The translations under genes were made by a program, and so were the position numbers. A DNA stretch of 64,000 nucleotides from Planctomycetota bacterium (GTDB taxonomy: Bacteria; Planctomycetota; PLA2; JAEUHO01), in assembly GCA_965223505.1 (NCBI GenBank), contig CBDCWP010000039.1, positions 160,001 through 224,000 of the forward strand, read 5' to 3'. Shown here in pieces: positions 3,968 through 23,300 of the stretch. A model generated the notes under the pieces. That model had not been told where the DNA came from, made no database searches, and saw only the letters and a program-made list of their open reading frames with translations. How positions within the stretch are numbered: position 1 is the first letter of the stretch; every line of letters starts with the position of its first letter.

Positions 3968-6900
3968 TTACGCCTGATTTTCGGGGCCGGCGGGCCACCA
4001 CAGCCGGAATGTCGACCCTTTGTTCGGCTCGCTCGACACGTCGATCGTCCCGCCCATGTCCTGCACGATGCGAGCGACGATGGCCAGGCCGAGGCCGGTT
4101 CCCTTGGTCTTGGTGCTGAAGTGCGGATCGAAGAGCCGCCCGAGATTCTGATCCTCGATCCCGATGCCGTCGTCCCGCACGGCAATGAGGACGCCGTCGT
4201 TTCCGCCACGCGTCTCCGCCTTGGCGCGGATCGAAACGGTGCCGTTCTCCGGGATCGACTGCACCGCGTTGACGACGAGGTTGAGCAGCACGCGCCGCAT
4301 CTCCTCTTCGTCCCAGCGCACCGTCGGCAGTGCCCCCTCGATCGTCGCGGTCACCTCGACGCCCATCGCGTGCGCGCCGTCGTGCAGCGAGGCGACATGC
4401 TCCACGAGGTTGCGCACGTCGACGTCGGTCACGTTGCGCTTCGGCAATCGCGCGAAGTTGGCGAAGTCGCCGGCGATGCGGTCGAGCGACTGGATCTGCC
4501 GCAGCACGACCGGCGCGGTCTTTTCGACGACCTCGCGCGCGTCTTCCGGGTTGCGGGCCACCTCGGCTTGCAGCTGCTGGATCATCAGACGAATCGGTGT
4601 GAGCGGGTTGCGGATCTCGTGCGCGACCTGGCGGGCCATTCTTCGCCACGCCGACTCGCGCTCCGCGCGCGCCGCGCGTTCGGTGGTCTCGCGCAGCTCC
4701 CGCGTCATCTGGTTGAACGCGGCCACGAGCTGTCCCAGCTCGTCCGGCCCTTCGCCGGGCAGCTCGAGATCGAGCTCGCCCGACGCGACCCGCTTCGTTC
4801 CGGAGGCGAGCAGGCCGAGCGGCTTCGCCAGATTGCGTGCGGCGTAGATGCCGACGACGAGCACGACGACCAGCGCGAGCAGATAGCCGGCCACCAACAC
4901 GCTGCCGGTGGTCGTGAGCTCCTGCTGTACGCGGCCCTCCTGATAGAGCAACGGCACCGCGACGGTTGCCAGCGTCTCGCCGCCGTCATCGAGCACGGGT
5001 GCGTAGCCGATCCAGACCCGGCGGCCGGCGTAGTTGGCGTCGCGCACGATGATCTGCCGCCGCTCCAGCACCGTCGCGCGATACACGGCCGCCGGGAGCC
5101 GGGGTGGCAGCAGCTCGGCCGCGACGAGTCCGGAGCGACTCGCCGAGTACACCTCGCTCTCGCGATAGAGCGCTGCGTCGAAGCGTTCGTCGGCCGCCCA
5201 GCGCACGAGATCGCGCGAGGTGGCGCGGTCGAAGACCTGATTGGTGAAGCCTTCGAGGTATCCGCGCGCGCGGGCCAGATCGCGGGAGAGGTTCGTCTCC
5301 ATCCCGGCTTCGTGGCGCTTCCCGGCTTCGCTCGTGCTCAGCATGCCGAGCAGGATCAGCGGAATGATCGAGACGACGAGGTACGAGATCAGGATGCGGT
5401 GGTGCAGGCGGCCGCGGTAGCGGTGGGCGACGGCCAGCAGGCACGCGAACGCGGCGAGTGCGCCGAGGCCGACGCCGACCACCACCAGCCGGGCGAGCGC
5501 GAGCAGCGCGTCGCCGGTGCCGGACAGGGCGCGCCGCACCGCGAACACGGCGCTGCGCGTGTCGGACCACGCGGCGTAGCCCTGGTACGTGTCGGTGCGC
5601 CAGCTCAGCGTCTCCCGGACCGCCGGGATGCTGCCGAGCTCCGACGGTCCGAAGCTGCCGAGATCGCGAGGAATCGAGTCGTCGTTCGACGCGACGACGA
5701 CGCCTTGCTGCAGGACCGCGAACGGCAGGCCGCGGCTGACGACCAGCGGATGCTGCGAGTCCTCGGCCGGCGGCGCGATGAGTCCGGAACGTCCTTGCAG
5801 CTCGAGATCGAGCAGGTCGGGCACCGTCAGCACGACGTGCCCGATGGGCTCGTTGCTCTCGGCGTCGCGGATGCGGAGCCTGCCGATGACGCTTCGCAGC
5901 GTGTTGCCGTCGCCGGCCTTGATGAGGACCTGCTCGTCGCTCTCGTCCGTGGGGCGCGTCGGTCGCCACAAGACGGTGGGAGGGAAGGCGGCCAACGAAA
6001 ACTGGTCCAGCAGAGCGCCGTGCTCGTCGAGAACGCTCACGACGCCGGGATCGCCGCGCTGCCGGAACTCGGTCTGCAGCCAGACGTGCAGCGCCAGTCC
6101 GTCCGCGACCGGTCCTCCGTCGCGTGCGCGACTCAGCGATCGGCGCAAGTGAGCGTCGTCCTGCAACCGCGCGAGCGTGACGTGCATGCCTTCCCGGACC
6201 GTGAGCTCCCGTTGCAGCACGTCTTCCAGGATGGGCGCGAGCTCCTCGCACTCGCGGTCCTGCACGTTGACCCAGAGCACAGGGAACAGCAGCACCGTCG
6301 AGAGGACGCTGAGCAAGAGGACGCGGCTCGGCAACGCGAGACCGGGCGCGCTGCGCTTGCGGCCGACCATGAGCCCCGCGATGAGCGGAATCCCGAGGGC
6401 CGCCCACTGCGCCGAAGCGACGGTGATCGCGAGCACCCACGTCAGAACGACCGAGGCGACCACCAAGGTGGTTCGCTTGGGCACGCGCCACGAAACGGGA
6501 AACCAGACCCACGCGAGCTTGAGTGCGAGGGCCGCGAGGAGGTACACCGTCGCGGTCATGGCGACGAGGCCGGTGAGCATGAGCGCCGTGGTCGTTCGCG
6601 GTGCGAACGCGCCCGCCTCGAATTCGAAGAAGGGCGTCGAACCGCCCGCGACGGCGTGGTGCACGAGCGCGAGCCACAGGGACACGACCATCGCGACCGC
6701 GAACGGCGCCGCGATCACGACGGCCGCGCGAACGCCGCGCCCCGGACGCCGGATGTGCACGAGCGCCATGCGCAGGAATACGCCCGCGAACAGAAACGCC
6801 AGCGCGGTGAGCGCGAAGTCGGCGGGGGAACGCAGCCAGCCGAGCGGGGTCTCGACCGAGAAGACGGCGGGCGAGAAGGGCTCGCTCAACCCGGGGAAGT

Positions 6901-7759
6901 AGTGCGGAATGTCGACCCACCGCAAGGCGCCTCGCGCGAGGAGCACGAGCAAGCCTGCGCAGGTCCAACGCCACGCCGAGGGCCGGATGCGGGCGACGGC
7001 GAAGCGTCGCAACACGAGCACGGCGGCCAGCCACATGACGAGCAGGCCGATGCCGAGATTGCGCCTGTTGGTCTGGGCGATGCGGTCGGAGATCGCGGCC
7101 GTCCCGCTGACGGCGACCCGCGCACCGAACAGCGGCTCGTCGGCCTTCGGGAGCGTGACCTCGACGACGGTGTCGCCGAGGTCCGTCGCCTTCGTGCCCG
7201 GCGGCACGATCTCGACGGAGCGAAGCTCGAGCGGGATCAGCCAGCGGTCGTGGAACGGCCGCGCATCGACCGACTCGGGGGCGGGTGCGGGCTGTTCGAG
7301 GATCACGGTGGCTGCCGCCCGGCCTCCGGCCAGCTCGATCGGTCCGTAGATCAGCGCGCGCAGGAACGGACCGTCGTGATACGCGATGTTTCCGGCGCTG
7401 AACGAGCGCTCCCACGGAGAGTCCGCGGGCAGGGGTCTGGGTTCGACCAGCCGTCCGGCCCAGACGGATTCGCCGGACGGGCCGTCCCAGACGAGTCCGT
7501 CGAGCCCGTGACGTTTGCGCAGCGACTCGACGGCGTCGAACCGAGGCCCGGGCGCGGCGGCGCCCTCGAGCGCGGGCGCGAGCTCCAACAGCGCGGCGCG
7601 GCAGCGCTCGACCATGTCCGTGAGCTCGGCGCCGACGCGCGCAGCGCCCCGTTGCAGGGTGTCACTGCGGCGTTCACGTACGTCGTCTTCGTCGACGCCG
7701 CAGCCGCCGAGCGCGCACGCCAGCGTCAGCAGAGCCGCGATGCAGCCTGCGCGGCTCAT
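3968..7759 (-). CDS. Large multi-pass NtrY-like sensor histidine kinase (HAMP-HisKA-HATPase), about 1263 aa
   Basis: HAMP (DELGQLVAAFNQM), H-box AWRRMARQVAHEIRNPLTPI, N-box NLVVNAVQ, DDGIG and GTGLGL; ATG at 7759 overlaps upstream stop (ATGA). Confidence 0.9.
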   Translation of the reverse strand: MSRAGCIAALLTLACALGGCGVDEDDVRERRSDTLQRGAARVGAELTDMVERCRAALLELAPALEGAAAPGPRFDAVESLRKRHGLDGLVWDGPSGESVWAGRLVEPRPLPADSPWERSFSAGNIAYHDGPFLRALIYGPIELAGGRAAATVILEQPAPAPESVDARPFHDRWLIPLELRSVEIVPPGTKATDLGDTVVEVTLPKADEPLFGARVAVSGTAAISDRIAQTNRRNLGIGLLVMWLAAVLVLRRFAVARIRPSAWRWTCAGLLVLLARGALRWVDIPHYFPGLSEPFSPAVFSVETPLGWLRSPADFALTALAFLFAGVFLRMALVHIRRPGRGVRAAVVIAAPFAVAMVVSLWLALVHHAVAGGSTPFFEFEAGAFAPRTTTALMLTGLVAMTATVYLLAALALKLAWVWFPVSWRVPKRTTLVVASVVLTWVLAITVASAQWAALGIPLIAGLMVGRKRSAPGLALPSRVLLLSVLSTVLLFPVLWVNVQDRECEELAPILEDVLQRELTVREGMHVTLARLQDDAHLRRSLSRARDGGPVADGLALHVWLQTEFRQRGDPGVVSVLDEHGALLDQFSLAAFPPTVLWRPTRPTDESDEQVLIKAGDGNTLRSVIGRLRIRDAESNEPIGHVVLTVPDLLDLELQGRSGLIAPPAEDSQHPLVVSRGLPFAVLQQGVVVASNDDSIPRDLGSFGPSELGSIPAVRETLSWRTDTYQGYAAWSDTRSAVFAVRRALSGTGDALLALARLVVVGVGLGALAAFACLLAVAHRYRGRLHHRILISYLVVSIIPLILLGMLSTSEAGKRHEAGMETNLSRDLARARGYLEGFTNQVFDRATSRDLVRWAADERFDAALYRESEVYSASRSGLVAAELLPPRLPAAVYRATVLERRQIIVRDANYAGRRVWIGYAPVLDDGGETLATVAVPLLYQEGRVQQELTTTGSVLVAGYLLALVVVLVVGIYAARNLAKPLGLLASGTKRVASGELDLELPGEGPDELGQLVAAFNQMTRELRETTERAARAERESAWRRMARQVAHEIRNPLTPIRLMIQQLQAEVARNPEDAREVVEKTAPVVLRQIQSLDRIAGDFANFARLPKRNVTDVDVRNLVEHVASLHDGAHAMGVEVTATIEGALPTVRWDEEEMRRVLLNLVVNAVQSIPENGTVSIRAKAETRGGNDGVLIAVRDDGIGIEDQNLGRLFDPHFSTKTKGTGLGLAIVARIVQDMGGTIDVSSEPNKGSTFRLWWPAGPENQA

Positions 7760-8253
7760 TTGGGCGGCAGCTTGGACTCGATGACCGAGCTGAGCACCCA
7801 TTTTCCGTTCGTCTCCGTTAGCGACACCGTCAAGCGCGTCTTGGTGGCGTCCTGGCCGACGGGCCGGTACGCGTAGTCGTAGAGGTGGACCTTCGGCTTG
7901 CGGTCGAGTCGGCGCGTCACGTCCTTGAGGTTCGGATCGCGGATCTTCTTGAAGTAGCTCTGGAGCGACTTCTTGGCCTGCTGGGCGGTCCAGCCCTTGC
8001 GGCCGCTGGAGCCCTGGGGCAACAGCAGGTCGACCCGCACCGTTCCCTTCGCATCCATGCACGCGACGACGGCCGCGGCATCGGCGGACTGCCAGGCCTT
8101 TTGAAACGCCGCGAAGCACTCCGCCTTTGTATCGCCTGTCCCGGCGTGGGCGGAAGGGGGCGCGTGAAAGGCGATCAGGAGCAGGCATGCGGCGACGAGG
8201 GCGTTGCGCCGCGAGTGCGGCGGTGGCGCGGCCGGCCTGGATCGCTCGAGCAT
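7756..8253 (-). CDS. Exported protein, NTF2-like/DUF4783-like
   Basis: Signal peptide ending AHA; AFQKAWQSADAAAV...YFKK...NGKWVLSSV pattern; translationally coupled to the kinase. Confidence 0.6.
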   Translation of the reverse strand: MLERSRPAAPPPHSRRNALVAACLLLIAFHAPPSAHAGTGDTKAECFAAFQKAWQSADAAAVVACMDAKGTVRVDLLLPQGSSGRKGWTAQQAKKSLQSYFKKIRDPNLKDVTRRLDRKPKVHLYDYAYRPVGQDATKTRLTVSLTETNGKWVLSSVIESKLPPK

Positions 8254-8548
8254 GGTCGACTCCGAAGTAGCGGAGCGGACGCAAAGCGGGGGCCGAAGCG
8301 GTCTTCGCCTCCCTGCCCTGCACGGGAGACGATAACCTCCGGTCTCGGAAGCCGTTACGTCGATCTGCCGCGTGTCGGCCCTTTGTGAGGCCTTGGCCAC
8401 GGCGGGACACCGTTGTCCACGGAAGGAGAAACCGGCGCGGCGTAACCCCCGGCGGTCTTCGAGCGATGTTCGTTTGGGGGGCCCCGAAAGACGCCTCGGG
8501 GGCGCTGCGTGCTTGGCGACCTTCCCACGGGTCGCTCCCGTCGCGCGC

Positions 8549-8986
8549 CTACTTCAGCTTCTCGAAGCCGTTGGCGCCGAACACGTCGAAGCCTCCGTCC
8601 TTGCCGGTTCCGAACCCGTGGTAGGCGTTGCGTGCGAGGTAGATGCGCAGCGAGTCGCCCTCCTTCGGGATCCCGCGGTGCCCGGTGGTCGACGGTGGCA
8701 TGGGCTTGCGACTGTTCCACCGGCGCGTCCAGTAGCGGGCGTAGACGAGTCCGCCGCTCTTCAGGTCGTCACCCTTTTCGACCTTGTCGATCGCGACCTC
8801 GGCCACGTGGTGCTTGACCTTCCAGCTGCCTTCCTCGACCTCGCGAACGTAGATCGCCTCGACCGTTCCCGTGACGATGTGCGTGGCGGCCTTCCGCAGC
8901 TGCTCCGCTGACATGTTTGCCTTCTCGGAGCGCGCGACAGCCGGCGCGAAGATCAGGACGGCGAGCAAGACGAGCAACGTACGCAT
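8549..8986 (-). CDS. Secreted hypothetical protein
   Basis: AAGGAGG RBS before ATG 8986; signal peptide MRTLLVLLAVLIFAPAVARS; ATHIVTGTV motif. Confidence 0.75.
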   Translation of the reverse strand: MRTLLVLLAVLIFAPAVARSEKANMSAEQLRKAATHIVTGTVEAIYVREVEEGSWKVKHHVAEVAIDKVEKGDDLKSGGLVYARYWTRRWNSRKPMPPSTTGHRGIPKEGDSLRIYLARNAYHGFGTGKDGGFDVFGANGFEKLK

Positions 8987-9255
8987 GGGGTCCTCCTTCG
9001 ATGCGACACCCAGTCTGACACGGCGCCCAGCCCTTTCGCGGCGGCCCTCCGGACGGCCCGGAGCCGCGGGATCGTCTCGGCGGCACGTGCGTGTTTTTCC
9101 CCTATGGCAGCCCTCCGGCGCACCGCTCGGGCGAAGCGTGTATCCTCGCGCGCATGGGCACGGAGATCCTGCAGGGGCCGAACGACGAGACCCGATCGCG
9201 GTCGCTCCACGACGACGCGGCTGATCGCGTCGAACGCCGGTGCAGGTAACGCGGG

Positions 9256-10428
9256 ATGGCACGTTCGTTCGTCGTCGACGAAGCCGAAGGCACGCGGTTC
9301 CCGTTCCTACGCGGCATCCTCACGCGCTCGTTGCAGTCTGCGGGCGTGCCGTTCGAAGCCGCCTACGCGCTCGCATCGGAGATACGCTCCGAGCTCGACG
9401 ACGTCGAAGAACTCTCGACGAAAGAGCTACGCGAACGGGTCGTGCCGAGGCTGGAGCCGTTCGGTGCGGACGTCATTCAGCGCTACCTCGGTCCACCGGT
9501 GCCCGACGAGGTGTCCATTCGCTTCGAAGACGGGCACCAGCGTCCGTTCTCCCGCGGCCGTCACCGGCAGAGTCTCGCGTCGTGCGGCATCTCGCCCGAG
9601 GACGCCGCCACCACCGCGGCGCGAATCTACGACGATCTCGTACAGCGGCACGTGCAGGAGATTCAGGCGAGCGAGCTTCGGCACCTCACGCACGGCCACC
9701 TCCTGCGCGAGCTCGGTGAAGAGGCCGCGCAGCGGTACCTCGTTTGGCAGGCGTACCAGCGTTCGAAGCGGCCGCTGGTCCTGGTGATCGGCGGTACGGT
9801 CGGCAGCGGCAAGAGCACCGTGGCGGCACAAGTGGCGCACCGGCTGGAGATCGTTCGGTTTCAGTCCACCGACATGTTGCGCGAGGTCATGCGGATGATG
9901 GTGCCGAGCCGTCTCATGCCCGCGCTGCACACGTCGACATTCAAGGCCTGGCAAACGCTCCCGACGGCGAACCCGTCCCGTCCTCCGACCGAAGCGCAGC
10001 TCGCCGACGGCTACCTCACCCAGGCCAAGCTCGTTTCGGTCGCCTGCGATGCCGTGTTGCGCCGCGCGATGCGCGAGCGCGTGTCGTTGATCTTGGAGGG
10101 CGTGCACGCCCACCCCAACTTCATCGAGCCGCCGGAGTCCGACGCGATCCTGGTGCGTGTCATGCTCGCCGTGCTGAAGCGCAGCAGGCTGCGACGGCGC
10201 ATTCGTGGTCGCGGCGAGCACGAGCCGGACCGGCGTGCCAAGCGGTACCTCACGCACTTCGACGCGATCTGGAACATCCAGTCGCTCATGCTCTCGGAAG
10301 CCGACCAGCTCGGCGTCCCCATCGTTCCGAACGAAGACCTCGACCGCACCGTGCAGGAGGTCATCGGCGTCGTGATGTCGGTGCTCGCGTCGCAGTTCAG
10401 CGGCACGCCGGAAGAGGTGTTCGGATGA
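9256..10428 (+). CDS. 2-phosphoglycerate kinase-like protein with two ATP-cone domains
   Basis: Two ATP-cone-like starts (PFLRGILTRSL, PFSRGRHRQSL); P-loop GGTVGSGKST; STDMLREVMR, LHTSTF and ILEGVH motifs of the archaeal 2PGK family. Confidence 0.85.
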   Translation: MARSFVVDEAEGTRFPFLRGILTRSLQSAGVPFEAAYALASEIRSELDDVEELSTKELRERVVPRLEPFGADVIQRYLGPPVPDEVSIRFEDGHQRPFSRGRHRQSLASCGISPEDAATTAARIYDDLVQRHVQEIQASELRHLTHGHLLRELGEEAAQRYLVWQAYQRSKRPLVLVIGGTVGSGKSTVAAQVAHRLEIVRFQSTDMLREVMRMMVPSRLMPALHTSTFKAWQTLPTANPSRPPTEAQLADGYLTQAKLVSVACDAVLRRAMRERVSLILEGVHAHPNFIEPPESDAILVRVMLAVLKRSRLRRRIRGRGEHEPDRRAKRYLTHFDAIWNIQSLMLSEADQLGVPIVPNEDLDRTVQEVIGVVMSVLASQFSGTPEEVFG

Positions 10429-11690
10429 CTCGGCGCAAAGTCGTCTTGATCATCCTCGACGGACTCGGTGACCTCCCCGCTCCCGCGTTCGATGGCCGGA
10501 CCCCGCTCGAGGCGGCAGAGACGCCCGTGCTCGATGCGTTGGCGCGAAGCGGCGAGTGCGGTCTCGTCGATCCGATCGCGCCGGGTGTGTACGTCGACAC
10601 GCAGACCGGCGCCGGAGCGCTCATGGGCATGGCGCCGCAGGTGGCCGCGCCGCTCCGCCGAGGCCCGGTCGAGGCCGCGGGGATCGGCGTGGAGCTGAAG
10701 GACGGCGAAGTGGCCCTGCGCGGCAACTTCGCCACGCTGAACCGTGACGGCGACGGGTTCGACGTGCGCGACCGCCGGGCCGGACGGATTCGGGACGGTG
10801 CGGCGGAGCTGGCGGATGCGCTGAACACCGTGGAGCTCGGCGACGAGGACGTCTCCGTGTCCGTTCGACCGTTGCGGCAGCATCGATTCTTGCTGCACCT
10901 CTCCGGTCCGTCGCTGTCGGACGACATCACCGACACCGATCCCGGCACCACCGGCGTGCCGCAGGTTTGGCGGCCGGCCCACGCGGTGTCTCCGGGGAAT
11001 GCCGCCGCGGAACGGACGGCGCGCGCCGTCAACGAATTCAGCCGGCGTGCGTACGACGTGCTCGCGGCCCACCCCGTGAACGAAGCGCGCCGACAAGCTG
11101 AGCTTCTGCCGGCGAACGGGGTGTTGCTGCGGGGCGCCGGTTGCCGGGTGCGTCCGCACAGCGTGCTGCACGACCGCGGGCTCAGCGGCGCCGTCGTCAC
11201 CGCCGACCGCACGCTCCTGGGTCTGGGCGTCCTGCTCGGCTTCACCCCGGTCCTCGAGCCGGGCTTCACCGGGTTGACCGATACGGATCTCGACGCCAAG
11301 GTGGCCGCGACCCTGTCCGCGCTCGACGGACACGACATCGTCTGGCTGCACATCAAGGGCCCGGACATCGCCGCGCACGACAGGGATGCGGTTTTGAAGG
11401 CGCGCTTTCTGGAGCGCGTGGACGCCGCGCTGGGGCCCCTGTGCGAACACGATGCGGTGCTCGCCGTCGCCGCGGATCACACCACCGACAGCAATACCGG
11501 TTGTCACACCGGTGATCCCGTGCCGGCGTTGATCCGGACGCCCGATGGGGCAGGCGATCCGTGCGCCGCCTTCAGCGAACGCGTCTGCCGCTTGGGCGGC
11601 CTTGGCCGGTTGACGGCTTCGCAGTACCTCGACGTCGTCCTCGCGGCGGCGACACCGACCGACGTCTCCGGGGCGGCGCGCCGCGGTTGA
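10425..11690 (+). CDS. apgM: Cofactor-independent phosphoglycerate mutase, archaeal ApgM type (alkaline phosphatase superfamily)
   Basis: IILDGLGD, TPLEAAETP, RGPVEAAG, RGNFAT, HIKGPDIAAHD, ADHTT, HTGDPVP; ATGA overlap with the kinase stop. Confidence 0.82.
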   Translation: MTRRKVVLIILDGLGDLPAPAFDGRTPLEAAETPVLDALARSGECGLVDPIAPGVYVDTQTGAGALMGMAPQVAAPLRRGPVEAAGIGVELKDGEVALRGNFATLNRDGDGFDVRDRRAGRIRDGAAELADALNTVELGDEDVSVSVRPLRQHRFLLHLSGPSLSDDITDTDPGTTGVPQVWRPAHAVSPGNAAAERTARAVNEFSRRAYDVLAAHPVNEARRQAELLPANGVLLRGAGCRVRPHSVLHDRGLSGAVVTADRTLLGLGVLLGFTPVLEPGFTGLTDTDLDAKVAATLSALDGHDIVWLHIKGPDIAAHDRDAVLKARFLERVDAALGPLCEHDAVLAVAADHTTDSNTGCHTGDPVPALIRTPDGAGDPCAAFSERVCRLGGLGRLTASQYLDVVLAAATPTDVSGAARRG

Positions 11691-11723
11691 CGGCTCGCCG
11701 GACTTCCACGCGCGACGCGGCGG

Positions 11724-12386
11724 CTACTCCGGGTAGCCAATCCGGTGGAACGGCGCCATGACGGACGAGGCGAGGTTGCGTGCGTGCGCGCTGATCCGCT
11801 TGAGGAAGCGGATGTAGAGCGCCAGCGCCGCGGACGTGCCGGTGTCCAGGTCGACCTTGCCGCCCACCAGTCCGTCCTCGAGCCGCCGGTAGTGACGCCG
11901 CACGTCGTCGTTGTAGTCGCGCATGAGGGCCCGCGCCTTGTCGGCGTCTCCTTCGCGGAACGCGTCGACGGCGTTGTCGAAGAGCGTGAGCGTCTCGGAT
12001 TCGATCTGCGCCAGTCGTTCCTCCATTGGCCCGCCGTTCAGTCGCTTCGGGTGGCTGACGGCGACGTCGTGAATGTTCTTGGCGTAGTCCCCGATCCGCT
12101 CGATGTCGATGACGATGATGACCAGCACGAGGCCGGAAGAGATGTCGGCGACGTTGCCGAGCGAGAGATGCGTCAGGACCTTGCGCCGCGCGTCACGCTC
12201 GAAGTGGTTGATGCGCTTGTCCATCGACACGATGTCGATGTCGACCTTCGAGTCGTCGCGCCGTCGAAGCGTCTCCACCGACGCGTGGATCATCTGCCGG
12301 CACAGGTCCAGCATGTCGGCGCACTCTTCGAGGGCCTGCACCTGAAGGTTGTCCTTCTTCAGCAGCTCGATGAACTTTCGTATCAC
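11724..12386 (-). CDS. phoU: PhoU-family phosphate regulator
   Basis: DKRINHFERDARRKVLTHL, DIERIGDYAKNI and LKRISAHARN PhoU repeats. Confidence 0.88.
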   Translation of the reverse strand: MIRKFIELLKKDNLQVQALEECADMLDLCRQMIHASVETLRRRDDSKVDIDIVSMDKRINHFERDARRKVLTHLSLGNVADISSGLVLVIIVIDIERIGDYAKNIHDVAVSHPKRLNGGPMEERLAQIESETLTLFDNAVDAFREGDADKARALMRDYNDDVRRHYRRLEDGLVGGKVDLDTGTSAALALYIRFLKRISAHARNLASSVMAPFHRIGYPE

Positions 12387-12388
12387 GA

Positions 12389-13576
12389 CTATCTCCCGAG
12401 GAACACGATCAGGAACGGGACCGCGTAGAAGGTGACGATGATGTAGATCAGTGGAATCAGCTTGTTGCGCATGGCGATCTTGCTGAACGCTTCGGCGATC
12501 CTAATCGGGATCTCGCGTATCCACCACACGACCGCGACGCCGATTACGTTGAAGAGCACGTGATGGAACGCGAGCTCGAGTCCGAGGAACGCCTTCGCAT
12601 AGGCCGACTCGTCGGCGGCGTCCGCCGCCGCCAACGCCGCCAGCGAGGCAATCAGGGCGGTTACCGTCGTCCCGATGTTGGCGCCCATCGTGTAGGGCAT
12701 GACCTGTCGAATCGTCAGCACGCCGGCGCCCACGAGCGGAACCGCGACCGAAGTCGTGATCGAGCTGCTCTGAACCAGGATGGTGAGCATCAGCCCGAAG
12801 ACCAAACCACGCGCCGCCGACTTGAAGATGACCCGGTCGAAGAGGTTTTCGAGCTTCTGGATCATGATGCTCTTCAGCGCCTTCACCAGGAAGACCAGGC
12901 CAGCGAACGTCATGAGGATGCCGCAGACGAGCATGAGCCCGCTACCGTTGCCGAAGAACTCGGTCGAGAGCGTGTCGTTCAGCCAGCCTCCCGCCGATTC
13001 GCAGGCATCCTGCACCGTCTTGATCACCGGCTTCGTGATCGCCTTGATCGGGTTGGCGAGCTTCGTTCCGCCGACGTTCTGGAACGCGTTGGCGGACCAG
13101 CCGGCGAGCTTGTCGAGGAACCCGGTCGACACCTCGAGTGGGAAGAGGATCAACAGGACGAACAAGTTGAAGAAGTCGTGCACCGACGCCGCGGCGAACG
13201 CGCGCTGATACTCCGCGGTCTGGCGCATGTGACCGATCGAGACGAGCGTGTTGGTGACGGTCGTTCCGACGTTCGCGCCCATCACCATGTAGACGCCGGC
13301 GTGGTACGAGACCTGTCCGCTGGCAACCAGGGCGACGACCATGCTGGTCGTCGTCGAGGAGCTTTGAACGAGAGTCGTTGCGAGGATGCCGATGAACAGG
13401 GAAACGAGCGGCCCGGTGGCGCCGCCCAGGAGCTCCTCGGTGTACCCGGCGCCCATCGCCTTGAAGGAGCCGCCCATCGTTCCGATGCCGAGCAGGAACA
13501 GATAGAGGAAGGCGAAGGTCGAGAGCACCTTGGCCCATGTCGGGAGTCTGGCGATCACGCCAGGCGAGCTGCCCAT
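12389..13576 (-). CDS. nptA: Na+/phosphate symporter (NptA/SLC34 type)
   Basis: Two QSSS repeats (LVQSSSTTTS, LVQSSSITTS) each followed by MGANV/IGTT; GGAGG RBS before ATG 13576. Confidence 0.9.
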   Translation of the reverse strand: MGSSPGVIARLPTWAKVLSTFAFLYLFLLGIGTMGGSFKAMGAGYTEELLGGATGPLVSLFIGILATTLVQSSSTTTSMVVALVASGQVSYHAGVYMVMGANVGTTVTNTLVSIGHMRQTAEYQRAFAAASVHDFFNLFVLLILFPLEVSTGFLDKLAGWSANAFQNVGGTKLANPIKAITKPVIKTVQDACESAGGWLNDTLSTEFFGNGSGLMLVCGILMTFAGLVFLVKALKSIMIQKLENLFDRVIFKSAARGLVFGLMLTILVQSSSITTSVAVPLVGAGVLTIRQVMPYTMGANIGTTVTALIASLAALAAADAADESAYAKAFLGLELAFHHVLFNVIGVAVVWWIREIPIRIAEAFSKIAMRNKLIPLIYIIVTFYAVPFLIVFLGR

Positions 13577-13636
13577 GTCCCGAGTCCTCCCACCGGTCCC
13601 TCGACGCCCCACGCGCATCGTGGGATGTGCCCCCTA

Positions 13637-13652
13637 AGCACCTCCCGTGCCA
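13637..13652 (-). promoter_or_regulatory. Sigma-54 (-24/-12) promoter for nptA-phoU
   Basis: Minus strand TGGCACG-GGAG-GTGCT; GG-N10-GC spacing, one mismatch to TGGCACG-N4-TTGCW, about 60 nt upstream of nptA. Confidence 0.7.
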
Positions 13653-13758
13653 CCGCGCGTGTGTCGGGCCGGCGGCGCGCACGAAGGCCAAACGTGGGGG
13701 GGGCTGCGCGAAACCTCGACGCCAAATGCGGGCTACGGCACAGCGCGACGGCGAACGG

Positions 13759-15498
13759 CTAGGCGATCGCGTGTTCCTTCTTCTTCTTGCCCTTGCGCCC
13801 CGGCTTCTTGGGCCGCTCCAGAGGCCAGCCGCCCTCCGCGACGACCTTCGCGATCCGCTTCGCGACGTAGTAGACGCGTTTGAGGCTCTCGATCAGCTCC
13901 GACTCCACGCGAAACGCGTCGAGACGATCCGGTCCGGCGGCCGCCAGTCTCTCCGTCAGGTGGCGCGTCGCCGCATCCGCGAGGCCGGACACGTCGGGCT
14001 TCGCGGCGATCACGTCCTGCGCCGACGCCAGGTCGTGCTTGCGCACCGAACGAACCGAGCGTCGCACCGCCCATAGCACCCGCTCGACGAGCGCGTCGAT
14101 CGCCTGACGCGTGCTGGGACTGATCTCGAACGCGTGCTCCGTGCGCCGTAGCCCCTCGCTGGCGAGGTCCGTCTCGACGATGTCCGCCATGTTCTCGAGG
14201 TAGTTCGCGATGCTGAGCGAGGCCTGCACCTGCCTGGTCTCTTCCTTCGAGAGGTGCCTGCTGGAGATCCGGCCCAGGTACTCGACGATCGCCCGGTGCA
14301 GCATGTCGACGTCTTCGTCCATGTGTTGGACCGCGCGGATCTCGTCAGGCGTTCCCTCCAAGATCGCTTCCGGCGATCGGCTGACCATGTTGCGCACGCG
14401 CTTGCCGAGCCGCCCCAGCTCCAACGCGATTCGATCGAGCGCGAGCGCCGGCGTCGGAATGAGGTTGTCGTCGAGGTACTTCGGTCGCAGGCGCTTGGGC
14501 ACGGCTTCGGGGCGCAGCGGGAGCACGCGCTGGACGAAGGCGGCAATGGTGCCGGTGAACCCGATGAAGATGAGGGTGTTCAGCGTGTTGAACGTCGTAT
14601 GCGCGTGCGCGATGCGGCGGGCGGGGTCGTCCGCGAGGCCGCGCACGAAGTCGGCGAGGAACGGGATGAACGCGAACCACAAGAGCACGCCCGCGACGTT
14701 GAAGGTCACGTGAATCAACGCGGTCTGCACGGCGACGCGCGGCTTGCCGATGGACGCGAGCAGCGCGGTGACGCACGTGCCGATGTTCGCCCCCAAGACG
14801 AGCGCGATCGCGCCTTCGAGCGAGATGAGCCCGGACGCGCCCATGACGATCACCACACCGGTCGTAGCGGACGAGCTCTGAACGAGTCCAGTGAAGAGCG
14901 CGCCCGTGAGGATGCCGAGCGCGGGGTTCTCCATGCCCTGCATGAGGTGGAGGAACCCCTCGTGATCCCTGAGAGGGTTCATCGCCCCCTTCATGAGGTT
15001 CATGCCGAAGAACACCAGGCCGAAGCCGAACAGCATGATTCCGTAGCGCTTCGTCTTCGGCGACTTCGAGAAGAAGTTGAGCGCGAACCCCACGGCGACG
15101 ATCGCCATCGCGAACTTCGTGATCTTGAACGCGATGATCTGGGCGGTGATGGTCGTGCCGATCTCCGCGCCCATGATGATGCCGACCGACTGCTGCAAGG
15201 ACATCAGACCCGCCGACACGAAGCCGACGGTCAGGACCGTCGTGACGGAAGACGACTGGATCACGGCCGTCGTGACGCCTCCGGCCAGCACACCCTTGAA
15301 GCGGTTGGTCGTCAGACGCGCCAGAAGTTTGCGCATGCCGCTGCCGGCGGCGGTCTTCAGCGCCTCCGTCATCAACTCCATGCCGTAGAGAAAGACGGCC
15401 AGGCCTCCGAACAGCCCCATCACCATCGTGCCGAAGTCGAGCGCGGCAATGTGCAAGGCAGGCCTCCCGGTTGCGGCGCGGTTCCGGGCTACCCTCAC
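13759..15498 (-). CDS. Na/Pi cotransporter with C-terminal PhoU-like domains (YjbB type); start uncertain (15426-15498)
   Basis: GGLAVFLYGM, IQSSSVTT/GAEIGTT, VQSSSATT/GANIGT, C-terminal LENMAD and LKRVYY. Confidence 0.9.
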   Translation of the reverse strand: MRVARNRAATGRPALHIAALDFGTMVMGLFGGLAVFLYGMELMTEALKTAAGSGMRKLLARLTTNRFKGVLAGGVTTAVIQSSSVTTVLTVGFVSAGLMSLQQSVGIIMGAEIGTTITAQIIAFKITKFAMAIVAVGFALNFFSKSPKTKRYGIMLFGFGLVFFGMNLMKGAMNPLRDHEGFLHLMQGMENPALGILTGALFTGLVQSSSATTGVVIVMGASGLISLEGAIALVLGANIGTCVTALLASIGKPRVAVQTALIHVTFNVAGVLLWFAFIPFLADFVRGLADDPARRIAHAHTTFNTLNTLIFIGFTGTIAAFVQRVLPLRPEAVPKRLRPKYLDDNLIPTPALALDRIALELGRLGKRVRNMVSRSPEAILEGTPDEIRAVQHMDEDVDMLHRAIVEYLGRISSRHLSKEETRQVQASLSIANYLENMADIVETDLASEGLRRTEHAFEISPSTRQAIDALVERVLWAVRRSVRSVRKHDLASAQDVIAAKPDVSGLADAATRHLTERLAAAGPDRLDAFRVESELIESLKRVYYVAKRIAKVVAEGGWPLERPKKPGRKGKKKKEHAIA

Positions 15499-15618
15499 CG
15501 TCGCCTTGCGCGAAACACGTGCGTTCCTTTATCGGATCGCGTGCAAGGTGGCCAACGCAATTCGTGATCGCCTGATCACGTCGATGTCGCGTTGCGCACT
15601 GTTGCGCAGGTGACGGTG

Positions 15619-16974
15619 TTACTTCAGTTGATAGCGCTCGATCTTCTTGTAGAGGTTCGAGCGCTGCATGCCCAACGACTCGGCGGTGCGTTTCACGTTC
15701 CAACCGTTTTCCTGCAGATGATGCTGCAAGAACAGCTTCTCGGACGTCTCCTTGAAGTTCTCGAACGTCTCGCAGGATCGGAACAGGTCTTCCATCTGCG
15801 ACGCGCCGGCGCTGGGACCGCTGAGCTGATCGAGGTCCTTGCCCTCGATCTTCGGGCCGTCGAGGAGGATCACGCACCGCTCCATCAGGTTGCGCAGCTG
15901 CCGCACGTTGCCGGGCCACTCCTGTTTCTCGAGCCACTTGACGCCGCTGTCGGCGATCTCCGGCGGCTCCTTGCCCAGGTTGGCCGCCATCTTCGCCAGG
16001 AACGCGCCGGCCAACAGCGCGATGTCCTGCACGCGATCGCGCAGCGGCGGTACGTGCACCGGGACGACGTTCAAGCGATAGAACAGGTCTTCGCGGAACG
16101 TCCCCTCCTCCGCCTCCTGCTTGAGGTCCTTGTTCGTCGCCGCGACCAGGCGTACGTCCACCGGGATCGGCTCCGCGCCGCCCACGCGCTGCACTTTCTG
16201 CTCTTCGATGACGCGCAAGACCTTCGCCTGCGCGTCGAGCGACATGTCGCCGACCTCGTCCAGGAAGAGCGTGCCCGTATGGGCCTGCTCGAACTTGCCC
16301 TTGCGCTGCTCGGTGGCGCCCGTGAATGCGCCCTTCTCGTGACCGAACAGCTCGCTCTCGAGCAGCTCCTTCGGGATCGCGGCGCAGTTCACGTCGACGA
16401 ACGGGCCCGCGCTGCGATCGCTCATCTCGTGCACCAGGCGTGCAACGAGCTCCTTGCCGGAGCCGTTCTCGCCCTGGATCAGGACGCGCGCCGGCGTCGG
16501 CGCGACCTTCGCGATGATCGCGCGCACCTCTTCGAGCTTCGGGCTGCCGCCCAGCATCCGCTTCGACGTGTCCGACAACCGCTCCTTCAGCGCGACGTTC
16601 TCACGCTGCAGTCGACGCGTCTGGTGCGCGTTGCGCACCGTCAGCAGGACGCGGTCCCGGTCGAGCGGCTTCTCGAGGAAATCGAAGGCGCCGCGGCGCG
16701 TGGCCTCCATGGCCGTGTCGATGGTGCCGTGGCCGGAGATCATCACGACCGCCACGTCGGGTCGCGCCTCCGCGATGTCGGCGAGCACCTCCAGCCCGTC
16801 CCGGCCCGGCATCTTGATGTCGAGGAAGACGAGCTCGGTCTCCGGCGCCTCCTTCAGGGCCGCCAGGCCCTGCTCGCCGTCGGCGGCCAGGGCGACCTCG
16901 TGATGCTCGTACCGCAGCACCAGATCGAGGCTCTCGCGGATGGCCTCCTCGTCGTCGATGACCAGAATCTTCAA
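15619..16974 (-). CDS. Sigma-54-dependent response regulator (NtrC/NtrX family)
   Basis: Receiver IDDE...[43 protein letters not shown]; Fis-type HTH. Confidence 0.93.
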   Translation of the reverse strand: MKILVIDDEEAIRESLDLVLRYEHHEVALAADGEQGLAALKEAPETELVFLDIKMPGRDGLEVLADIAEARPDVAVVMISGHGTIDTAMEATRRGAFDFLEKPLDRDRVLLTVRNAHQTRRLQRENVALKERLSDTSKRMLGGSPKLEEVRAIIAKVAPTPARVLIQGENGSGKELVARLVHEMSDRSAGPFVDVNCAAIPKELLESELFGHEKGAFTGATEQRKGKFEQAHTGTLFLDEVGDMSLDAQAKVLRVIEEQKVQRVGGAEPIPVDVRLVAATNKDLKQEAEEGTFREDLFYRLNVVPVHVPPLRDRVQDIALLAGAFLAKMAANLGKEPPEIADSGVKWLEKQEWPGNVRQLRNLMERCVILLDGPKIEGKDLDQLSGPSAGASQMEDLFRSCETFENFKETSEKLFLQHHLQENGWNVKRTAESLGMQRSNLYKKIERYQLK

Positions 16975-17102
16975 AGCCGGCTCCCGTCTTTGGCCCCGGG
17001 CTCGGGCGCCCTCGACACAACCAGTTGTGGGTTGAAGGGTTAGGGAGGATACACGCGCTTGGGCGTGGCCGGAACTCGGCGACCGATTGAGGTAGGATTC
17101 GG

Positions 17103-17798
17103 ATGCAACCCATGAGTTCCGACGTTTCCAAGAGTGGCATGAGCCCGCCTGCGACCCTCCGCCCCAACGAACGCCTTACAGACGACGACCTCATGGTCCG
17201 TTGCGGCACCGGTGACACCGCGGCGCTCGCCGAGCTGATGGGACGCCACCAGGACGCCGCCTACCGCTATGCGTGGCGCATCTTTCGCAACCACCACACC
17301 GCGGAGGACGTGACACAGGAGTTCTTCGTCAAGCTCTTCCGGTACGCCGGCCGCTATCAGCCGCGCGGCCACTTCACGACCTACTTCTACCGCGTGTTGG
17401 CGAACCTGTGCTTCGACAACCTGCGCAAGCGCAAGCGGCGCAGCAAGGTCGAGTCGATCCAGATGGATCCGATCGCCTGCGAGGGCACCGAGCTCGAGCC
17501 GCTCGCCCGCGACGTCGATCCGGAGACCCCGCTTCGCCGCGAAGAGGCGAAGGACGCCGTCCACGAGGCGCTTTCGTCGCTGCCCGTTCAGGTGCGCAAG
17601 GCGCTGGAGCTACGCGAGTTCGAGGGGCTGCGCTACCGCGAGATCGCGGAGGTGATGGACCTCTCGCTCAACGAGGTGAAGGTGCTCCTGCACCGCGGCC
17701 GCAAGCTGTTGGCGCGCACGTTGGCGCGCACGCCCGTCGGCCGCGACTGGGTGCGCTACTACAACCGCAGGAACGACGGCAGGGGAGGTGCGCGATGA
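17103..17798 (+). CDS. ECF RNA polymerase sigma factor (start may be 17112 or 17139)
   Basis: AEDVTQEFF, FTTYFYRVLANLCFD (region 2); LREFEGLRYREIAEVM...VKVLLHRGR (region 4). Confidence 0.92.
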   Translation: MQPMSSDVSKSGMSPPATLRPNERLTDDDLMVRCGTGDTAALAELMGRHQDAAYRYAWRIFRNHHTAEDVTQEFFVKLFRYAGRYQPRGHFTTYFYRVLANLCFDNLRKRKRRSKVESIQMDPIACEGTELEPLARDVDPETPLRREEAKDAVHEALSSLPVQVRKALELREFEGLRYREIAEVMDLSLNEVKVLLHRGRKLLARTLARTPVGRDWVRYYNRRNDGRGGAR

Positions 17799-20625: not shown

Positions 20626-21120
20626 GTGAGTTTCCTCGTCACTTGGGTCGTCCTCGCAGGGTTCTGGTGGGGGCTCTCCGGCAAGGCCGACGCGACCCAC
20701 CTCGTCTTCGGGGCGGTCAGCGTGACGCTCGTGAGCGCCCTCTCACACCGCCATCTCACGGCCAACGCCACCGTGCGATTGGGCCTGGCCCGCACCGTCC
20801 GCACGATCCTGTATCTGCCGTGGCTGTTCTGGCAGATCTTCGTCGCCAACATCGACGTGTTGCTGCGCGTCATCGGCGTTCGCCCGATCGATCCGAAGAT
20901 GATCCGCTTCCGTCCGGAGCTGGACTCCGACTACGGGCTCACGCTGCTCGCCAACAGCATCACGCTCACGCCCGGGACCGTCACCGTCGAGGTCGACAAC
21001 GGCGAGATGATCGTCCACGCGCTCACGCCCGGCGCGGCCGACGGCGTCATGAGCAAGGCCATGGAGGAGCGCGTACACAGGGTCGAAGGTGAAGGCGGCA
21101 ACCGAGAGGACGACGACTGA
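20626..21120 (+). CDS. mrpE: Mrp/Mnh Na+/H+ antiporter subunit E
   Basis: LANSITLTPGTVT motif. Confidence 0.92.
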   Translation: MSFLVTWVVLAGFWWGLSGKADATHLVFGAVSVTLVSALSHRHLTANATVRLGLARTVRTILYLPWLFWQIFVANIDVLLRVIGVRPIDPKMIRFRPELDSDYGLTLLANSITLTPGTVTVEVDNGEMIVHALTPGAADGVMSKAMEERVHRVEGEGGNREDDD

Positions 21121-21416
21121 TGCCGGACGTCTACGTCGCCACGATCGCCATCGTCCTCGTCGGCGTGCTCATCGTCTTGCATCGCGTCATCACCGGGCCC
21201 ACGCTGCAGGACCGCATCCTCGCCGTCAACGTGATCGGTACGAAGACCATCGTCTTGCTCGCGCTGGTCGGCTTCGTGTACGAGCGGCCCGGGTTCTTCC
21301 TCGACATCGCGCTCGCGTACGCCTTGATCAACTTCGTCGCGACGCTCGCCGTCCTGCGCTACCTCGAGGACCGTGCGCGCCGCAAGCGCACCACGGCCGA
21401 GGAGGAAGCGTCATGA
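21120..21416 (+). CDS. mrpF: Mrp antiporter subunit F
   Basis: RVITGPTLQDRILAVN...DIALAYALINF. Confidence 0.92.
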   Translation: MPDVYVATIAIVLVGVLIVLHRVITGPTLQDRILAVNVIGTKTIVLLALVGFVYERPGFFLDIALAYALINFVATLAVLRYLEDRARRKRTTAEEEAS

Positions 21417-21811
21417 TCCTCCTGGCGTGGGCCGACACGGTCGCGACCGTCCTTCTGTTCGGCGGGGCGTTCTTCATGTTGATGGCGGCCGTCGGCGTCG
21501 TCCGATTCCCCGACTTCTACTCGCGCCTCCACGCCGCGGGCAAGGGCGACACGCTGGGGCAGGGGTTGGTGTTGTCCGGGCTGCTGTTCGTCGCGGGCCT
21601 CGGGCACGACACGTTCAAGCTCCTGCTGATCGCCTTCTTCGTCTTCATTCTCAACGCCACCGCGACGCACGCGCTCGCGCGCGCTGCGTGGCTGGCCGGC
21701 GTCAAGCCTTGGCGCCGCCGGGACGGGCCCGAGGACGACGTCCGGCAGTTCGAGGGCCAGATGACCGCGCGCGACCGCGAGGCCCTGTTCGACGAGGAGG
21801 CCGGTTCATGA
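21413..21811 (+). CDS. mrpG: Mrp antiporter subunit G
   Basis: GVVRFPDFYSRLHAAGKGDTLG; ATG at 21413. Confidence 0.92.
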   Translation: MILLAWADTVATVLLFGGAFFMLMAAVGVVRFPDFYSRLHAAGKGDTLGQGLVLSGLLFVAGLGHDTFKLLLIAFFVFILNATATHALARAAWLAGVKPWRRRDGPEDDVRQFEGQMTARDREALFDEEAGS

Positions 21812-22461
21812 TCGAGAGCCTCCTGCTTGCGATTCTCGTCGGGTTGGCGCTGGCGGCCGTGTGGATGCGCGACCTGCTCGGCTCCGCCGCGGTCCTCGGC
21901 GCGTACAGCCTCGTGATGGCGCTCCTCTGGGGCTACATGAACGCGCTCGACGTCGCGTTCACCGAAGCCGCCGTGGGCGCCGGCATCTCGACGGTGCTGA
22001 TGCTCGCCGCCGTCAACCGCATCGGACGGCTCGAGTCCGGGCACAGCGTCGGACCCTTGGTCAAGCCGGCGCTTCGAAGCATTGCCGAGCGCTCGGACGC
22101 GGCGAGGGCGCACCACAACGCGGGCGCCCGCCGCGCCCGCATCTGGGCGTTCCTGATGTGCGCACTGGTCGCTGCGGCGCTCATCTACGGCGCGCGCGAC
22201 ATGCCGAAGATCGGCGATACGAGCTCGCCCGCGAACCGGCCGGGCTCCGTGGCGTCGCACTACCTGGAGAAGTCCGACGAAGAGGTCGGCGCCTACAACA
22301 TCGTCACGTCCGTGCTCGGCGACTACCGCGGGTACGACACGATGGGGGAGACCTGCGTCATCTTCACGGCGGCCCTGTGCGTGCTGCTGCTGCTGAGGCT
22401 GGGCCGGCGCGACGAAGACACCGTCGACGTCGTCGAGGACGGAGGCGACCATGCGGACTAG
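21808..22461 (+). CDS. Mrp subunit B-related protein (DUF4040 plus MnhB N-terminal part)
   Basis: ALDVAFTEAAVGAG; NIVTSVLGDYRGYDTMGE. Confidence 0.88.
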   Translation: MIESLLLAILVGLALAAVWMRDLLGSAAVLGAYSLVMALLWGYMNALDVAFTEAAVGAGISTVLMLAAVNRIGRLESGHSVGPLVKPALRSIAERSDAARAHHNAGARRARIWAFLMCALVAAALIYGARDMPKIGDTSSPANRPGSVASHYLEKSDEEVGAYNIVTSVLGDYRGYDTMGETCVIFTAALCVLLLLRLGRRDEDTVDVVEDGGDHAD

Positions 22462-23297: not shown

Positions 23298-23300
23298 GTC

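Follow-up and report, generated by a model that had tools for sequence, protein, structure and literature searches.

We report that a 2-phosphoglycerate-kinase-like kinase and a paralog of the ApgM phosphomutase family, encoded by adjacent genes in a Planctomycetota bacterium, are two coupled, co-evolving enzymes, and that the gene pair is tied to phosphate genes in other genomes, a link that is well supported. The DNA analyzed, called the window below, is a stretch of 64,000 nucleotides (nt) (assembly GCA_965223505.1, contig CBDCWP010000039.1, positions 160,001 to 224,000 of the forward strand), and positions are counted from its first letter. A reading of the sequence alone had proposed a phosphate-related module at this locus (the original prediction), and all of the genes that it named, the kinase, ApgM, PhoU, two sodium/phosphate (Na/Pi) symporters, and an NtrC-type activator, were found in place. 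The finding is real and conserved, and as far as we searched it is not in print. In the reading that we favor, to which we give about an even chance, the window carries a conserved two-enzyme module that makes 2,3-diphosphoglycerate (2,3-DPG, also 2,3-bisphosphoglycerate) and serves phosphate homeostasis. The mutase would draw 3-phosphoglycerate into 2-phosphoglycerate, the kinase would use ATP to convert 2-phosphoglycerate into 2,3-bisphosphoglycerate, two ATP-cone domains would gate the kinase by the adenylate level, and the product would be a low-molecular-weight compound that rapidly absorbs or buffers phosphate, or one that signals phosphate or energy status. The product is taken to serve phosphate balance because the constant neighbors of the pair are Pst, PhoU, Na/Pi, Pit, PPK1, PPK2, and PhoR. 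The kinase-mutase chemistry is plausible, and we infer the substrate and the physiological role from sequence and gene context.

The kinase-mutase pair and its phosphate gene neighborhood

The two genes and the phosphate genes that face them are listed below, with lengths in amino acids (aa), the longest open reading frame (ORF) where the start is ambiguous, and the evidence for each assignment in brackets.

9256..10428, plus strand: 2-phosphoglycerate-kinase-like kinase, 390 aa (Pfam, NCBIfam, alignments, AlphaFold model, Foldseek, hhalign)
9265..9492, plus strand: ATP-cone 1 of the kinase, residues ~4-79 (no Pfam match; hhalign to cone 2)
9508..9759, plus strand: ATP-cone 2 of the kinase, residues ~85-168 (Pfam PF03477 at 89-168, 39.9 bits, cut-off 25.8)
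Residues 171-390 of the kinase, plus strand: P-loop domain of the nucleoside monophosphate (NMP) kinase fold (Walker A, G180-S187)
10425..11690, plus strand: ApgM-family phosphomutase paralog, 421 aa (TIGR00306; alignment to PDB 3IDD)
11724..12386, minus strand: stand-alone PhoU-domain protein, 220 aa, last gene of the minus-strand array (Pfam PhoU 74.6 bits, in two stretches)
12389..13618, minus strand: NptA-type Na/Pi cotransporter, longest ORF 409 aa (Pfam Na_Pi_cotrans 129.6 bits; NF037997 114.7 bits, cut-off 50)
13759..15498, minus strand: Na/Pi cotransporter with a C-terminal PhoU domain, longest ORF 579 aa (Na_Pi_cotrans 222.8 bits and PhoU 53.7 bits; TIGR00704 237 bits, cut-off 210)

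The stop codon of the kinase and the start codon of the mutase overlap as ATGA at 10425-10428, an arrangement of translational coupling, and the mutase and phoU genes are convergent with 33 bp between their ends. This agrees with the earlier description of a coupled pair that converges on nptA-phoU and a second, PhoU-fused Na/Pi gene. The arrangement is not a product of chance because it recurs across genomes.

Relatives of the kinase were searched in one genome per species over 185,579 species. The search yielded 511 stretches with a relative, the best 80 of which were examined with up to 9 kb on each side. Neighboring ORFs within 7 kb were clustered heuristically and the recurrent clusters were named by Pfam and NCBIfam; Pst, PhoU, Na/Pi, Pit, PPK1, PPK2, and PhoR were counted as phosphate genes, with the PstB cluster excluded because it also catches other ABC ATPases. 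A mutase gene is found directly downstream of the kinase and on the same strand in 63 of the 80 loci (tblastn; estimated median gap 25 nt), and 64 of the 80 have one or more phosphate genes no farther than 7 kb from the kinase. Among the 47 loci with full flanks (≥5 kb on both sides), 43 have a phosphate gene. The co-localization of kinase, apgM, and phosphate genes, which the original prediction had named as its own check, is borne out by these counts. For comparison, ~1.5% of the window's genome lies within 7 kb of such a phosphate gene. The phosphate genes of this genome are found at four places: a pst-phoU-phoR cluster on contig C27, ppk1-ppk2 on C41, a second nptA-phoU pair on C44, and the locus described here.

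The kinds of neighbor, counted over the 80 loci, are PhoU-type (29), PstS (24), PstC/A (24), the Na/Pi-PhoU fusion (15), PPK1 (14), PhoU_div (12), PHO4/Pit (11), PPK2 (10), and PhoR (8), and in many loci the kinase is aligned in line with the pst genes. When the loci are grouped by record label, the phosphate-positive ones amount to 14/16 in 'Planctomycetota', 43/55 in Gammaproteobacteria, 3/4 in Gemmatimonadota, 1/1 in Acidobacteriota, 1/2 in Chloroflexota, and 2/2 in Desulfobacterota. Within the phylum of the window the kinase is patchy, being present in 20 of 201 genomes including the window's own (15 out of 129 high-quality genomes). A high-scoring mutase (≥269 bits) occurs in 10 genomes besides the window's, which corresponds to 10 of 19 kinase-positive and 0 of 181 kinase-negative genomes; this threshold was chosen after a gap in the scores had been seen, and the Thr motif described below confirms the split. 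A structure prediction for a complex of kinase and mutase returned a score of 0.00, which is no verdict and weighs neither way.

Several recurrent arrangements were noted in these neighborhoods. A variant pst operon stands beside the kinase in four loci (L063:9921-15590, L004:1399-6785, L136:4324-9602, and L137:12250-17557), in the order PstS, a PhoU of ~360 aa with an extra C-terminal domain, PstC, PstA, and two tandem PstB; the extra domain of this long PhoU matches Pfam LMWPc (E 6.5e-7) in L071. A small gene of the SixA/histidine-phosphatase superfamily is found beside the kinase at L028:2974-3504 and also in L011, L024, L031, and L077; in L024, L028, and L031 the SixA-type gene is present and the ApgM-like gene is absent. 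The SixA-type gene could be a non-orthologous replacement of ApgM or a PhoR-related phosphatase. Downstream of the kinase pair, an array of PhoU_div, PHO4, a 205-aa protein without a name, a Metallophos phosphoesterase of ~500 aa, and CNNM/CorC occurs at L023:14413-16492 and in 7 or 8 similar loci of Chromatiales and Sedimenticolaceae. CNNM/CorC magnesium-transporter genes are found in 15 loci.

The kinase

By profile comparison the kinase is homologous to archaeal 2-phosphoglycerate kinase (2PGK) across the whole length of the latter: the 2PGK model NF003259 matches with 272.9 bits (E 3.5e-81), residues 93-378 corresponding to positions 12-293 of the 306 in the profile. The two best-matching NCBIfam models, NF003259 and NF008994, are both named for 2PGK. 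The family is large, with at least 2407 proteins at E ≤1e-10 among the 8000 candidates scored; the best 120 are 47-69% identical and ~390 aa long, and the invariant motifs include PFLRGILTRSL and DMLREVMR. A sequence search with the kinase gave no meaningful PDB match, and no solved structure defines a 2-phosphoglycerate site.

ATP-cones tune ribonucleotide reductases to adenylate levels. The double ATP-cone that had been read from the translated sequence holds up: cone 1 (residues 1-82) aligns to cone 2 (residues 83-170) with an hhalign probability of 98.2% (E 5.7e-14). In the AlphaFold model of the kinase (81 homologs, mean pLDDT 93.5) two tandem domains, residues 1-78 and 87-170, have the same order of strands and helices and are followed by an alpha/beta P-loop domain. 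Foldseek matched the N-terminal part to the tandem cones of Pseudomonas aeruginosa ribonucleotide reductase (5im3) and the P-loop domain to adenylate, UMP/CMP, shikimate, and gluconate kinases. The tandem ATP-cone is real as judged by both the profile comparison and the model, and its nucleotide binding is predicted. Because the kinase domain has the NMP-kinase fold, the enzyme is most simply seen as a small-molecule kinase.

The mutase and its predicted threonine nucleophile

The mutase passes the ApgM subfamily model TIGR00306 (336.8 bits, cut-off 320) and is homologous over its full length to the Thermoplasma acidophilum ApgM structure 3IDD (E 1.2e-65). In the alignment to 3IDD, the mutase retains DGLGD, D..H, and DH as metal-ligand motifs, along with RGNFAT and DRRAGR. 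D12, D16, D314, H318, D319, D351, H352, and H361 align to 3IDD and are invariant or nearly so in 39 mutase sequences; these Asp and His residues are the predicted metal ligands, by analogy with the alkaline-phosphatase superfamily.

The predicted nucleophile is Thr59 (codon ACG, 10599-10601), at the position of the canonical Ser. Thr is found in this column in all 60 kinase-linked relatives with a near-full-length match and in 39 out of 39 aligned sequences of three types, A (phosphate-linked), B (linked to a cyclic 2,3-diphosphoglycerate synthetase, see below), and C (a third type). Ser occupies the column in all 19 ApgM paralogs without kinase linkage from other genomes of the phylum, and in the paralog on contig C12 of the same genome. 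In a quick maximum-likelihood tree of 54 sequences, which carries SH-aLRT support only and in which the 'Ser' group is made up of the kinase-unlinked paralogs including the copy on contig C30, the 33 Thr-type mutases fall on one side of a branch with a support of 97. On this alignment and tree, the kinase-linked Thr-type mutases form one clade, a new ApgM subfamily marked by an invariant Ser-to-Thr change.

The window's genome has three ApgM paralogs, and neither GpmI nor GpmA was found in it above cut-off. One of the three, on contig C12, scores above the cut-off of the iPGM equivalog model NF003160 (516.9 vs. 468 bits). Because a different ApgM passes that model, the kinase-linked mutase is regarded as an additional, specialized paralog. 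The third paralog (contig C30, 221173-222348; L087:1486-2679, minus strand) has Glu in the nucleophile column and a very long branch, and may be non-catalytic or misaligned.

Sister operons with a cyclic 2,3-diphosphoglycerate synthetase homolog

In several genomes of the phylum the kinase and mutase genes are separated by a gene of ~1.4 kb. The encoded protein, which matches nothing in Pfam or NCBIfam, is a homolog of cyclic 2,3-diphosphoglycerate (cDPG) synthetase (cDPGS), with a full-length match to the Methanothermus fervidus enzyme 8ORK (E 7.6e-113). The cDPGS homolog is present in 7 of 201 phylum genomes, each of which also encodes the kinase and a Thr-type mutase, and the order is kinase, cDPGS homolog, Thr-type mutase wherever the contigs permit a view. 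The cDPGS-linked kinases of two of them, G149 and G027, pass the 2PGK equivalog cut-off of 343 with 363 and 355 bits, respectively. Because these sister operons include a cDPGS homolog, they provide good contextual evidence for phosphoglycerate chemistry of the kinase and the Thr-type mutase.

A search with the bacterial cDPGS homolog (tblastn and genome search) found no cDPGS in the window's genome, which is 92% complete; the same query found the seven positive genomes among the 201 of the phylum and served as its own positive control. The original prediction had seen no cDPG synthetase at the locus, and the genome-wide result agrees. The search was likewise negative for the stretch within 9 kb of the kinase at each of the 80 loci, for the 12 remaining genomes of the phylum sample that have the kinase, and for five more hosts, among them a cultured isolate and three assemblies at chromosome level. 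On this result cDPG was rejected as the end product in the window's genome. Because no cDPGS was found, 2,3-DPG is the probable end product, i.e., the pathway probably stops at 2,3-DPG in this genome.

The flanks fetched for five cDPGS-linked loci contain no phosphate gene. Two loci of the third, divergent type, which lacks cDPGS, are directly beside a pst operon. The pattern is that loci with cDPGS have no phosphate genes and loci without cDPGS have them. As a separate observation, the cDPGS operon (L101:104-1492 in G149 and L105:2718-4118 in G027; also in G059, G084, G109, G130, and G192) continues with a gene for a CBS-pair protein.

Is the product 2,3-DPG?

A number of observations weigh against a 2,3-DPG-making module as the reading of this locus. 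Both enzymes fall below equivalog cut-offs, the kinase for the two 2PGK models (NF003259, 272.9 vs. 343 bits; NF008994, 283.4 vs. 603) and the mutase for the iPGM models (NF003104, 335.3 vs. 489; NF003160, 227.6 vs. 468). The canonical active-site motif GSD(T/V)(A/S)H of the mutase has become D-T-Q-T-G-A in the window, so that Ser, Asp, and His are all changed. Of 78 positions with ≥95% conservation within the clade of the window's kinase, 41 are occupied by another residue in one or more of the cDPGS-linked kinases (E281, which becomes N or H, and W339 are examples), and because of these differences a shifted kinase substrate is possible. Relatives in the same families use other substrates, namely mevalonate-3-phosphate 5-kinase on the side of the kinase, and both PhpG and a proposed homoserine kinase on the side of the mutase. 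The kinase occurs without the mutase in 16 of 79 informative loci (one locus ends too early). The loci examined are the best 80 out of 511 relatives, and many of them are related to one another. Finally, a Pho-box scan showed no enrichment, with sites of at least 10 of 14 matches in 11 of 79 kinase upstream regions vs. 78 of 780 control segments, using the Escherichia coli consensus, which may not apply to these phyla.

Much of this evidence would fit the same module with a different chemistry, in which the kinase acts on another phospho- or hydroxy-acid, an inositol phosphate, or a polyphosphate-related substrate and the Thr-type enzyme is a phosphatase or phosphotransferase, the role in phosphate homeostasis being unchanged. 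We consider this possible, though on balance somewhat unlikely. The sub-equivalog scores of both genes, the altered active-site motif, the 41 differing kinase positions, and the other substrates of the relatives all speak for it, as do the 16 loci in which a kinase without a mutase stands directly beside PPK1, PPK2, PhoR, or Pit genes. The rice homolog LPA1, which affects total seed phosphorus, has been proposed to be an inositol monophosphate (InsP1) kinase (PMC4844318; this and the other papers given by PMC identifier are cited from excerpts). Against a change of chemistry, the nearest relatives of both genes are the cDPGS-flanking forms, to which the mutases are sister in the tree. The canonical Arg-rich motifs of ApgM, RGNFAT and DRRAGR, are retained. 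The remaining 37 of the 78 clade-conserved kinase positions are identical in 5/5 cDPGS-linked kinases; the residues shared in this way include Walker A, D206, R209, R213, Q256, R270, E274, H284, and R319, and the charged invariant residues of the kinase are common to both groups. The route from 3-phosphoglycerate through 2-phosphoglycerate to 2,3-DPG that the original prediction had put forward is substantially supported by the sister operons in 7 of 201 genomes, and is qualified by the score of the kinase below the 2PGK cut-offs and by the changed nucleophile of the mutase.

With 2,3-DPG as the product, a phosphate 'overplus' function alongside polyphosphate would agree with how often PPK1 and PPK2 are neighbors and with the placement of the two genes in line with pst. 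A bolder version holds that 2,3-bisphosphoglycerate, or a related bisphosphorylated C3 acid, is a phosphate-status metabolite of bacteria, made by the kinase when ATP and glycolytic intermediates are plentiful and turned over or fed by the Thr-type mutase; it would be a buffer beside polyphosphate and possibly a ligand of the PhoU-domain proteins on Pst, Pit, and Na/Pi transporters. We regard this version as speculative and rather improbable. If it were true, a metabolite of the 2,3-DPG type would be a candidate for the intracellular phosphorus signal, as yet unidentified, that is discussed for PhoB/PhoR in the excerpt of PMC11389368.

Sigma-54 and the regulation of the locus

Two features of the minus-strand array bear on its regulation.

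13638..13652, minus strand: sigma-54-type -24/-12 motif TGGCACGGGAGGTGC (one mismatch to TGGCAC-N5-TTGC)
15619..16974, minus strand: NtrC-type sigma-54 enhancer-binding response regulator, 451 aa (Response_reg 95.2, Sigma54_activat 244.7, and HTH_8 36.2 bits)

The original prediction had called the whole module sigma-54-linked, and we examined the idea that the entire block, kinase pair included, is one sigma-54 regulon under the adjacent NtrC-type activator. The activator is intact, with receiver, AAA+ sigma-54 interaction, and helix-turn-helix (HTH) domains, it passes no NCBIfam equivalog cut-off, and rpoN is present in the window's genome. The one-mismatch motif, read from 13652 to 13638 on the minus strand, lies in the 140-bp gap before nptA-phoU, ~60 nt before the likely nptA start codon at 13576. 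Counting this one, the 64-kb window has four matches with no more than one mismatch, and matches with at most two mismatches are not enriched there as a class (49 found, 53 expected). No -24/-12 motif was found in the 270 bp upstream of the kinase (8986-9256), where the nearest match overlaps the start codon and is without the GC of the -12 element, and none was found upstream of the Na/Pi-PhoU gene. Among the relatives, an NtrC-type gene near the module was matched weakly by tblastn in 3/80 loci and in none of the five closest (L002-L006). The regions upstream of nptA in relatives, compared by eye, share a different element, TGCTATC, with a poor -24 and no clearly conserved -24/-12 motif. A single regulon that takes in the kinase pair is quite unlikely on this evidence, and the label given to the module is not upheld, with the activator not conserved beside it and the motif confined to nptA. 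To judge from the motif, nptA-phoU of this genome alone could plausibly be under sigma-54 control, which is not a feature of the module. A scan of 8800-17200 for sigma-70 promoters returned 0 promoters, and terminators were at chance level.

Possible priming of the mutase or housekeeping glycolysis

The kinase could also make 2,3-DPG in catalytic amounts only, to prime a Thr-type mutase that works through a bisphosphate intermediate, as phosphopentomutase and cofactor-dependent phosphoglycerate mutase (PGM) do, in which case the pair would be an alternative glycolytic PGM system rather than a store or signal of phosphate. Phosphopentomutase of Bacillus cereus is activated by a bisphosphate. 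A Thr nucleophile is found elsewhere in the alkaline-phosphatase superfamily, as in Thr85 of Bacillus cereus phosphopentomutase (PMC11641776). The strict co-occurrence of the kinase and the Thr-type mutase in the phylum sample also agrees with priming. However, priming leaves both the phosphate and polyphosphate neighborhood and the kinase-only loci unexplained, an equivalog-level ApgM is already present on contig C12, and the cDPGS operons require stoichiometric 2,3-DPG from the kinase. We consider priming very unlikely.

Hardly credible is the idea that the ApgM is simply the glycolytic mutase, with the kinase an unrelated neighbor and the phosphate genes adjacent by chance: the lack of GpmI and GpmA above cut-off does imply that an ApgM-type enzyme must carry the glycolytic flux, but it is the C12 paralog that passes the iPGM equivalog model, the genes are found side by side and in a phosphate context under six phylum labels vs. 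the ~1.5% background, and the module is patchy (20 of 201 phylum genomes), unlike a housekeeping gene. The identity of the mutase as a housekeeping PGM was rejected on these three grounds.

Relation to known systems

A full-text literature search, judged from listings and abstracts, found no paper on a bacterial phosphate-linked 2PGK-mutase module. The published work on 2-phosphoglycerate kinase found among the matches listed concerns either archaeal cDPG or plant LPA1, and the literature found on diphosphoglycerate synthetase is archaeal by title. What is new here is the clade of mutases with a predicted Thr nucleophile, the division into cDPGS-linked and phosphate-linked forms, and the demonstration of tandem cones.

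The closest known pathway is that of cDPG in Methanothermus fervidus, which consists of 2PGK and cDPGS (PMC10690619, PMC12136491). The window kinase resembles the archaeal one in its homology over the full archaeal length and in its combination of ATP-cone and P-loop domains, and the sister bacterial operons hold a cDPGS homolog between kinase and mutase. It differs in its extra N-terminal ATP-cone and its sub-equivalog score, and the search of the genome gave no cDPGS; its neighbors are phosphate-uptake and polyphosphate genes rather than a solute operon, and the host is a GC-rich bacterium rather than a hyperthermophilic methanogen. According to the excerpt of PMC10690619, cDPG is exclusive to hyperthermophilic methanogens, and the bacterial operons of 2PGK, cDPGS, and Thr-type ApgM contrast with this stated restriction. 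The split between cDPGS-linked operons for solute synthesis and cDPGS-less, phosphate-linked ones suggests that an archaeal-type pathway may have been repurposed. It has been reported that Deinococcus and Thermus share 14 COGs, including COG2074 and COG3635 (the ApgM group), with archaea or eukaryotes, and that these occur in no other bacteria (excerpt of PMC1274311).

As an ApgM (TIGR00306; structures 3IDD, 3KD8, and 2ZKT), the mutase shows full-length homology with the metal-ligand, RGNFAT, and DRRAGR motifs in place, and is set apart by Thr59 for Ser, by the loss of the neighboring Asp and His, by a sub-equivalog score, and by its membership in a separate clade that is strictly kinase-linked. 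The ATP-cones of ribonucleotide reductase and NrdR (PF03477; in tandem in Pseudomonas aeruginosa 5im3) have the same fold and the same tandem arrangement, and unlike those, the cones in the window are attached to a small-molecule kinase. Plant LPA1 is likewise a P-loop kinase of the 2PGK family with a phosphorus-storage biology, the rice protein being tied to seed phosphorus and phytate (PMC4844318). By its published description, and unlike the window kinase, it is eukaryotic and its proposed substrate is inositol monophosphate. We know of no ApgM partner or Pho gene context for LPA1.

The PhoU-fused Na/Pi transporter of the window presumably has the same architecture as E. coli YjbB. YjbB has been treated as a phosphate exporter (PMC11389368), and the fusion could be either an NptA-like importer or a YjbB-like exporter. 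PhoU-type regulators are paired with transporters in several systems, including PhoU with Pst, PitR with Pit, and NptA with a PhoU domain (PMC13170248). The nptA-phoU pair and the Na/Pi-PhoU fusion fit a scheme in which each transporter has its own PhoU-type regulator; no kinase or mutase is named as a partner of such systems in the excerpts of PMC13170248 and PMC11389368. Bacterial phosphate homeostasis is now explained by transporters, PhoU-type regulators, PhoB/PhoR, and polyphosphate, and the intracellular quantity that is sensed is still described as open in the excerpt of PMC11389368. The pair is compact and widely distributed (relatives in 511 stretches, with six phylum labels among the 80 examined) and stands next to phosphate genes in most of the loci examined. 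It suggests a small-molecule branch of phosphate housekeeping on which our literature search found nothing. The hypothesis lends itself to direct testing, because one host of the pair, Elongatibacter sediminis (L059), is in culture and both enzymes are soluble and confidently predicted.

Other features of the window

The examined region has a G+C content of ~68%. For nptA the likelier start is an in-frame ATG at 13576 with GGAGGA before it, and the Na/Pi-PhoU fusion has an alternative TTG start at 15456 with GGGAGG upstream. The stand-alone PhoU scores 79.1 bits with TIGR02135, under the cut-off of 130. One regulatory gene lies farther out from the module.

17103-17798, plus strand: extracytoplasmic function (ECF) sigma factor

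On the other side of the module, a histidine kinase of 1480 aa (3968-8410, minus strand) has its HAMP-HisKA-HATPase domains confined to the last 300 residues, preceded by an N-terminal part of ~1180 residues without a Pfam match. A few kb from the Na/Pi transporters, at 21089-28400, the window carries genes of a multisubunit Na+/H+ antiporter of the Mrp/Mnh type, with matches to PhaG_MnhG, MbhD, and MbhE.

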